Source: Escherichia coli
Lineage (GTDB): Bacteria > Pseudomonadota > Gammaproteobacteria > Enterobacterales > Enterobacteriaceae
Length of the DNA stretch: 317 bases
Assembly (NCBI RefSeq): GCF_003334255.1
Contig: NZ_QOWU01000264.1
Reading direction: 5' to 3' (one strand)
The notes beneath the pieces are model-generated. The model saw only the letters and a program-made list of their open reading frames with translations. It ran no database searches and was not told where the DNA came from. How positions within the stretch are numbered: the stretch's first letter is position 1; each line of letters opens with the position of its first letter. The position numbers were made by a program, and so were the translations under genes. Of the stretch, positions 129-317 are shown piece after piece.

Positions 129-190
129 TGACGATGCAGAAGCAACTGGAAGGGGCGCAGGAATATATCCGTACTCAGTGCATTAAGTAG
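1..190 (+). CDS. Rz: Rz-type i-spanin (inner-membrane spanin subunit), C-terminal portion; 5'-partial, gene starts upstream of the window
   Basis: Frame beginning at position 2 is open to TAG at 188-190. Hand translation: RINATCPGSVREAPTTSGVDNATGPRLADTAERDYFILRERLMTMQKQLEGAQEYIRTQCIK*. This closely matches the C-terminal region of phage lambda Rz as I recall it (motifs SVREA, SGVDNA, PRLADTAERDYF, LRERL, TMQKQLEG, QC near the C-terminus). Both cysteines known to be conserved in the lambda Rz periplasmic domain are present (codons 17-19 and 179-181). Identity recalled from memory, not searched. Confidence 0.9.
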   Translation, partial: RINATCPGSVREAPTTSGVDNATGPRLADTAERDYFILRERLMTMQKQLEGAQEYIRTQCIK

Positions 191-204
191 TCTTTTTATT
201 ATCC

Positions 205-210
205 GGAGGA
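205..210 (+). promoter_or_regulatory. Shine-Dalgarno / ribosome-binding site for the downstream ORF
   Basis: GGAGGA at 205-210, followed by a 3-nt spacer (tgt) and ATG at 214-216. Spacing is on the short side but acceptable. It lies in the 23-nt gap after the Rz stop. Confidence 0.6.
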
Positions 211-213
211 TGT

Positions 214-317
214 ATGAAGAAATTACTGGTAACCGTAAAACCTTTTCAGGGAACAATTCCGTTCCGTATTTTGCAGCGTGGTCGTGTTCTTGTTGAAGGT
301 TCGTTCAGTGGTAAATG
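214..317 (+). CDS. hypothetical protein, N-terminal portion; 3'-partial, runs off the window end
   Basis: ATG at 214 is preceded by the GGAGGA Shine-Dalgarno. The frame is open for 34 codons to the window end: MKKLLVTVKPFQGTIPFRILQRGRVLVEGSFSGK. MKK is a typical N-terminus. No hydrophobic stretch long enough for a signal peptide, and no lipobox Cys, so it is not Bor-like and is probably cytoplasmic. Same strand as Rz with no convincing terminator between them, so it is probably co-transcribed with the lysis genes. I do not recognise the product. Confidence 0.6.
   Translation, partial: MKKLLVTVKPFQGTIPFRILQRGRVLVEGSFSGK

Follow-up and report, generated by a model that had tools for sequence, protein, structure and literature searches.

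The fall in G+C content behind the Rz stop codon in a 317-nt stretch of Escherichia coli DNA, termed the window here, probably marks the border between two modules of a lambdoid prophage, where an optional late-operon cassette follows the spanin genes. The cassette would start at about position 182 and measure ~270 bp. It would take in the final codons of Rz, the 23-nt spacer that holds a strong ribosome-binding site, and the 225 nt that encode a protein of 74 amino acids. It would occupy a variable slot between Rz and a conserved block of ~185 nt that precedes the packaging genes. The best reading of the gene is that of an optional passenger of the late operon and not of an autonomous conversion gene of the bor type. 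The gene itself is an ordinary lambdoid feature. As in textbook mosaicism, small accessory genes rich in AT are exchanged among lambdoid phages at fixed slots; a step in G+C content can serve as a marker of such mosaic joints. The 74-residue protein family and especially the block are leads worth keeping. About one-fifth of complete E. coli genomes (1140 of 5426, 21%) carry this selected, well-folding and uncharacterised gene beside the spanin genes, and the block, if functional, would be a new feature in one of the best-studied phage groups.

The composition step and the mosaic joint

All genes of the window are on the plus strand. The 3′ end of the Rz i-spanin gene spans positions 1–190 (58.4% G+C; TAG stop at 188–190), as seen from its translation and a match to phrog_13; the frame 2 translation reads RLMTMQKQLEGAQEYIRTQCIK and closes with EYIRTQCIK before the stop. 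The 3′ part of the Rz1 o-spanin gene is embedded in it at 3–128, in the +1 frame of Rz, with a TGA stop at 126–128 and the frame 3 translation GSTPPVQAPCVKPPPPPAWIMQPAPDWQTPLNGIISSSESG. A spacer of 23 nt (TCTTTTTATTATCCGGAGGATGT; 191–213, plus strand, 34.8% G+C) leads to the next gene and includes the Shine-Dalgarno sequence GGAGGA (205–210, plus strand), 4 nt 5′ of the ATG. The 74-codon gene begins with this ATG at 214 and opens with MKKLLVTVKPFQGTIPFRILQRGRVLVEGSFSGK in translation; its first 34 codons and 2 nt fill the window to position 317. A 28-residue alternative open reading frame in another frame (210–296), with its ATG 4 bases 5′ of the start at 214, is probably spurious, and conservation and substitutions track the frame that starts at 214.

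The closest public sequence (locus L001) is a 40-kb context from a prophage of E. coli STEC17-183. It is 99.7% identical to the window, and the sole difference, at position 240, is synonymous. Rz of this prophage is a 152-residue protein annotated as 'lysis protein' that matches the 'Rz-like spanin' family phrog_13 (E = 6e-74), and the Rz1 open reading frame encodes a 61-residue lipoprotein matching phrog_3198, also 'Rz-like spanin' (E = 1e-30). Rz1 (19943–20128) lies inside Rz (19732–20190), the arrangement of a two-component Rz/Rz1 spanin. A lambda-type cos site (GGGCGGCGACCT) is found ~260 bp beyond the 74-residue gene and is followed by Nu1. Further upstream, at 11501–16928, the prophage displays the late layout of Stx phages, with a Q-like DUF1133 protein, a DNA methyltransferase, tRNA-Ile/Arg/Arg and a nanS-type SASA esterase; the stretch from the tRNA cluster to the esterase carries no annotated stx genes.

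The initial annotation had counted G+C by hand at about 58% over 1–190, about 68% over 1–100 and about 41% over 214–317, and a recount reproduced this exactly, with 58.4%, 68.0% and 41.3%, and gave 40.2% for 191–317. The drop after the Rz stop is real, as confirmed by this recount and by comparison with the prophage context. Within the 40 kb of L001, a drop of at least 0.182 between adjacent segments of 190 and 127 nt occurs at 0.7% of positions, and 104-nt windows with a G+C content of 41.3% or less occur at 7%. Thus, the drop is unusual, but not extreme. It consists of two steps, one at ~100–128, where the Rz1 overlap ends, and a second at the Rz stop. The proline-rich Rz1 stretch, VKPPPPPAWIMQPAPDW, forces a high G+C content on the overlap, and the caveat that this overlap lifts the upstream value was well placed; the overlapped part (1–128) has 63.3% G+C, as against 48.4% in the tail that is Rz only (129–190). 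The lowest 60-nt window (181–240, 31.7%) covers the spacer and the first nine codons of the next gene. Part of the drop is thus explained by the Rz1 overlap together with an AT-rich translation start, and these two account for about half of it.

Could they account for all of it? The drop would then be purely local, with proline codons of Rz1 upstream, an AT-rich start region downstream, and a following gene that is not distinct in composition. The position of the minimum and the early onset of the fall, within Rz itself, agree with this, as does the gradient within the gene, whose first 104 nt have 42.3% G+C in the closest relative and the remaining 121 nt 49.6%. Also, the gene ranks only eighth lowest in plain G+C among 53 prophage genes. 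The full-length gene, however, weakens such an explanation and makes it unlikely. The whole gene of the closest relative has 46.2% G+C and a GC3 of 0.44; reference values are 52.8% for the prophage stretch of L001, 55.3% for Rz, ~56% for late genes and 56.1% for the conserved block. Compared with 5000 random in-frame pieces of 75 codons (225 nt) drawn from the prophage late genes, it falls in the lowest 1.2% for G+C and the lowest 3% for GC3, and its codon usage has a z-score of −2.5. Compared with pieces of host genes, sampled from one 50-kb chromosomal stretch, it falls in the lowest 1.6% and the lowest 1.1%, respectively, with a codon-usage z of −2.35.

A lower-G+C gene downstream of Rz had been proposed from the 104 nt in the window, and a composition typical of the late region over the full length of the gene would have spoken against it. 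A separate gene is present, and from start to stop it has a lower G+C content than the late region, in the lowest 1–3% of late-gene pieces. Against genes of the early region it is ordinary (16–25% level), and 225-nt windows as AT-rich as the gene make up 15% of the whole prophage. The compositional shift is real but moderate, and it is a family-wide trait. Alleles of the 74-residue gene have 41–46% G+C, with 41–42% in the divergent ones, and a long form of 198 residues has 38%. Distant relatives have 38–42%; two of these stand beside lysis genes of 49–52% and a third is in a locus of 39% overall. That divergent alleles and distant relatives at 38–42% are found beside lysis genes of 49–55% also argues against a purely local drop. 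Other genes found in the slot after Rz share the property, with 41–43% for bor and 45–48% for Rha, as compared with 51–55% for Rz and 56% for the block. The cargo of this slot, the 74-residue family included, is 8–10 percentage points of G+C below the adjoining lysis genes.

The boundary of the cassette is seen in sequence similarity. Similarity of the window to most Rz-bearing phages and prophages ends at about position 181, which puts a mosaic joint at 182–190; the last two Rz codons and the stop therefore belong to the variable part. Coverage of the window is below 80% in 355 of 380 phage records, and the examples listed end at 180–181. An alignment with PhiR12_1 and Stx1_14744 agrees with a joint at ~181. 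Among E. coli genomes, 4520 match the Rz segment and 844 of them match the full window. In the phages Stx1_14744 and 1720a-02 no gene intervenes, and the conserved block starts 8–13 bp past the Rz stop; in L001 Rz and block are separated by 263 bp with the 74-residue gene. The gene is thus present in some and absent in others of these related phages, as is expected of a moron.

A census of 107 viral contigs, for which the block motif was the sole search criterion, found the slot empty in 25% and occupied by the 74-residue gene in 15%, by Bor in 14%, by Rha in 12% and by other DNA (200 bp or more) in 28%. Min27, Lambda_2G7a and lambda carry bor in the slot, on the opposite strand, and P13374, ES18, Lys8385Vzw and IdasGreatGrand a Rha-type or anti-repressor gene. 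A second scan of viral contigs, with a divergent family member, returned mostly the same contigs.

A 9-bp direct repeat, TTATTATCC, brackets the cassette. The upstream copy is at 196–204 of the window and the second, outside the window, is at 20445–20453 of L001, 7–15 nt past the stop of the gene. A shared 9-mer arose in 106 of 200,000 composition-matched shuffles of both 23-nt flanks (~5e-4). The repeat is exact in this allele and imperfect in the commonest alleles, and the junction expected from precise excision, CTTTTTATTATCCATGCGC, was absent from a search of IMG/VR.

Relatives, expression and fold of the 74-residue protein

Wherever a fetched locus includes upstream sequence, the gene stands after Rz, whatever the packaging module beyond it, e.g. 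Nu1 and cos in L001, and HNH and TerS in Stx2_EH1846. Relatives at 25–35% identity occur in other phage types, where unrelated spanin genes immediately precede them and terminase genes follow. The spanin neighbours of these relatives are non-homologous and of two types, one of them DUF2570/LysC. The N15-like phage YDC107_1 has its relative as the middle domain of a protein of 198 residues encoded at the same post-spanin place. This long protein matches the family phrog_2571 (E = 9e-108), to which the 74-residue protein also belongs (E = 2.8e-28, 99.9 bits, residues 1–73). The short protein corresponds to positions 100–172 of the 291 in the family profile and is a stand-alone beta-sandwich that lacks the helical N-terminal part seen in the long form. 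That the same late neighbourhood is kept at 25–35% identity points to an old resident of the phage gene pool and not to evident host-derived cargo.

Four loci with distant relatives show a further arrangement. The relatives at 4341–4559 of L156, 4305–4511 of L161, 626–838 of L160 and 449–670 of L164 are followed, ~60–95 nt downstream on the same strand, by a gene for 68–73 residues; the E. coli form is without such a neighbour.

A role around lysis, suggested by the consistent linkage to spanin genes, is the leading, though weak, guess for the 74-residue protein. A stronger form of this idea is that the protein is an ancestral accessory component of spanins or lysis, often lost, which works with Rz/Rz1 or with the holin at lysis. 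The constancy of the place after Rz irrespective of the downstream packaging module, the position of distant relatives just past non-homologous spanin genes, the fused 198-residue form at the same place in an N15-like phage, and a layout with Rz in some alleles that is typical of translational coupling are all consistent with it. The gene is nevertheless found in only ~15% of block-bearing loci and with ~11% of E. coli Rz copies. In addition, its composition is unlike that of lysis genes, and no envelope-targeting signal is predicted in its product. One distant relative lies between Q and the holin gene, and another beside lom/bamE-like cargo. With a relative upstream of the holin, the linkage to lysis genes is not absolute, and on balance an ancestral lysis component appears unlikely.

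The autonomous lysogenic conversion gene is a different model for cargo in this slot. In its lambdoid sense, the term moron is reportedly that of Juhala and Hendrix in 2000. The bor gene of lambda, which encodes a lipoprotein, is expressed in lysogens from a promoter of its own. A working definition holds a moron to be a usually independently expressed gene that appears inserted in an operon when relatives are compared (PMC2629481). A consensus scan, which is crude and would miss weak or non-sigma-70 promoters, found no sigma-70-like promoter between Rz and the 74-residue gene or in the 3′ end of Rz, and the only such site in 2 kb is beyond cos. The same type of scan found no terminator-like site between the stop of the gene and the conserved block. 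The sole plus-strand terminator-like hairpin is inside the open reading frame, at 250–275 of the window (20250–20275 of L001), and such a count equals the expectation from shuffles. This hairpin consists of GGAAC-AATTCC-GTTCC followed by GTATTTTG, and it is constrained as coding sequence (TIPFRIL). Thus, with respect to the properties of a moron, the gene has a distinct composition, and neither a promoter nor a terminator of its own was found by these scans.

The gene lies on the strand of the late operon, 23 nt past Rz, and has its own Shine-Dalgarno sequence; the spacer 5′ of the gene is conserved in the 150 copies fetched. The Rz stop varies among alleles, as seen in the window, L084 and many IMG/VR loci. 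It is TAG in the window, TAA or TAG elsewhere, and is absent in many alleles. In the alleles without it, Rz gains eight codons by way of the spacer and ends in a TGA that overlaps the ATG of the gene (ATGA). Such a stop/start overlap is a layout typical of translational coupling. Apparently without transcription signals of its own, the 74-residue gene would be transcribed as part of the Q-dependent late message that covers S, R and Rz; this proposed read-through from pR′ is drawn from the established organisation of the lambda late operon. Translation would start from the gene's own Shine-Dalgarno sequence or be coupled to that of Rz where stop and start overlap. The protein would then act late in infection and not in the lysogen.

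How closely, then, does the gene resemble lambda bor? Both share the slot after Rz/Rz1, are optional among close relatives, and are lower in G+C than their flanks. These likenesses are what favours a classic autonomous moron, expressed in the prophage from its own promoter, ended by its own terminator and of benefit to the lysogen. The differences are in orientation and signals. Bor is on the opposite strand, whereas the 74-residue gene is co-directional with the late operon and may overlap the Rz stop, and Rz reads through the 23-nt spacer in many alleles. No promoter-like site upstream or terminator downstream was detected by the consensus scan, no signal peptide or membrane segment is predicted in the product, and no host homologue outside prophage contexts was seen among the family matches. 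An autonomous gene of the bor type is accordingly improbable, slightly more so than either alternative weighed above. The initial annotation had suggested a horizontally acquired moron. The insertion, the optional presence and the differing composition bear this out, but independent expression does not find support, as no promoter or terminator was found. An inserted, AT-rich gene with no signs of autonomy thus supports the moron reading only in part.

A partial parallel to the optional late-operon passenger is the 'ant moron' region of P22-like phages, which is located before the tailspike gene and carries the independently regulated genes mnt, arc, ant and sieA (PMC2629481). Both are hypervariable stretches of the late operon with differing non-morphogenetic genes, and both are sometimes empty. 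The post-Rz slot differs in being located between spanin and packaging genes, and its 74-residue occupant shows no signs of independent regulation.

The open reading frame is a genuine gene under purifying selection. In L001 it is 225 nt long and is annotated in RefSeq as a coding sequence for a 'hypothetical protein' of 74 residues (WP_000735655.1). The alleles comprise 28 distinct DNA sequences, of which at least eight specify one and the same protein. The family comprises 66 database clusters with 47 representatives at 50% identity, and its members are all in prophage contexts of Enterobacterales and are all unnamed. That the AT-rich stretch is only a non-coding spacer from Rz to the packaging region, as might be imagined from the lack of a Pfam or NCBIfam family or a named homologue and from several phage records in which the frame is unannotated, is effectively refuted by dN/dS values of 0.25–0.37 against divergent alleles, the many alleles with only synonymous differences, a length of ~74 residues retained down to 59% identity, invariant residues that include G13, P16, G33, K34 and C35, a strong Shine-Dalgarno sequence, the spread of the 47 representatives across Enterobacterales, and the fold prediction.

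At the amino acid level, AlphaFold2 with a 23-sequence alignment gives a mean pLDDT of 90.5 and an all-beta model from residue 2 onwards, with six strands and one short helix, and without a signal peptide or membrane segment. The protein is thus predicted with confidence to be a small soluble beta-sandwich. No function emerged from any of three fold searches, in which the best E value of Foldseek among viral structures was no lower than 0.07 and the AFDB50 search found uncharacterised family members only. A sequence-profile search of the PDB gave no match either (best E = 0.71). Searches of Pfam and NCBIfam gave no match, and no family among the PADLOC anti-phage defence profiles was matched at E ≤ 1. 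The accession WP_000735655.1 is mentioned in no paper found. One 1.5-kb contig encodes a 125-residue protein (P0002) in which an N-terminal DUF1737 (PF08410) segment is fused to the entire 74-residue sequence; a wrongly called start or a rearrangement at the locus is the probable cause of this fusion.

A conserved block between cargo slot and packaging genes

Downstream of the gene, the unannotated block looks like a structured RNA and appears to be a more novel lead than the gene itself. In L001 it extends over 20454–20640 (~185 nt), starting ~15 nt past the stop of the 74-residue gene and ~137 nt beyond the window. The block is near-invariant among phages with differing flanks. It is found in 428 phage records, as against 28 for the 74-residue gene, and in at least 1852 complete E. 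coli genomes. It invariably sits between the cargo slot behind Rz and the packaging genes, irrespective of the type of terminase. The block core is present in only seven of ~100,000 species-representative genomes (one per species), which indicates a narrow distribution in lambdoid phages of the Escherichia type. The E. coli records listed carry no annotation for the block, and nothing relevant was found in the literature on the sequence of its core or on the names of the neighbouring lambda open reading frames.

Known classes of elements do not account for the block. It does not appear to be coding, as it shows 1-nt insertions and deletions and inconsistent calls of open reading frames on both strands. 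No tRNA or tmRNA was found in it, and a search of L001 19500–21200 on both strands against Rfam gave no match at E ≤ 1. AgvB and AsxR are small RNAs of lambdoid prophages in EHEC/EPEC (PMC4104026), and Pas small RNAs have been described as well (bioRxiv 10.64898/2026.05.13.724894). The genes for these RNAs are close to pR′, in the interval from Q to the lysis genes, and the RNAs themselves are 51–60 nt long or modelled in Rfam (PMC4104026; 10.64898/2026.05.13.724894). The block shares with them the properties of a conserved non-coding sequence at a fixed position beside a cargo slot of the late region. Its location after the spanin genes, its length of ~185 nt and the negative Rfam search differ from theirs, and an identity with AgvB/AsxR or Pas, which map upstream of the lysis genes, was rejected.

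Secondary structure was assessed with an alignment of 35 representatives, each with at least six differences. The consensus fold has −36.8 kcal/mol on the plus strand and −18.2 kcal/mol on the reverse complement. Of the cells in the proposed structure, 98.2% pair, as compared with at most 63% when partners are slid. Compensatory changes are found in nine of 40 pairs, five of them in the seven pairs of one terminal hairpin, whose variants include TCCGGT/ACCGGA, TCCTGT/ACAGGA and CTCGAT/ATCGAG. The values for pairing and compensation were reached in none of 500 shuffles, the structure being derived from the same alignment on which it was scored and the sequences being related and mosaic. The narrow spread of the block left little extra diversity for covariation. 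The folding energy of the single sequence is no better than that of shuffles (z = +0.12).

A diverged copy of the block is present in lambda itself (NC_001416, 46867–47042; nhmmer E = 9e-34), between bor and lambdap78, where nothing is annotated. This copy retains the 5′ domain and 32 of the 40 pairs; other sequence stands in place of the 3′ domain. The same profile search located two direct copies in the N15-like phage YDC107_1 (2466–2650 and 3414–3604 of locus L085), one on each side of the gene for the 198-residue phrog_2571 homologue (2701–3297). The upstream copy keeps 40 of 40 pairs, with three compensatory changes. The placement of two blocks around this homologue suggests that cargo can be gained or swapped by recombination between blocks.

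Possible roles of the block are those of a structured segment in the late mRNA, a binding site for a protein on DNA, or a conserved linker that promotes exchange of the adjoining cargo. A more specific proposal, which is tentative and more likely wrong than right, combines several of these properties. The block would be an undescribed structured RNA of the late transcript and at the same time an anchor of the cargo slot, with cassettes such as the 74-residue gene, bor and Rha recombining between Rz and block or between block and block, and the 74-residue protein, expressed late, would be a partner of the spanins in a new role at lysis.

There is also a second variable slot, after the block and before cos or terS, at ~20633–20650 of L001 (compare L004, L015 and L041). 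Some contigs have inserts of ~770–960 bp here. In others the packaging module is switched at this point and consists of a small minus-strand open reading frame, an HNH DNase and TerS.
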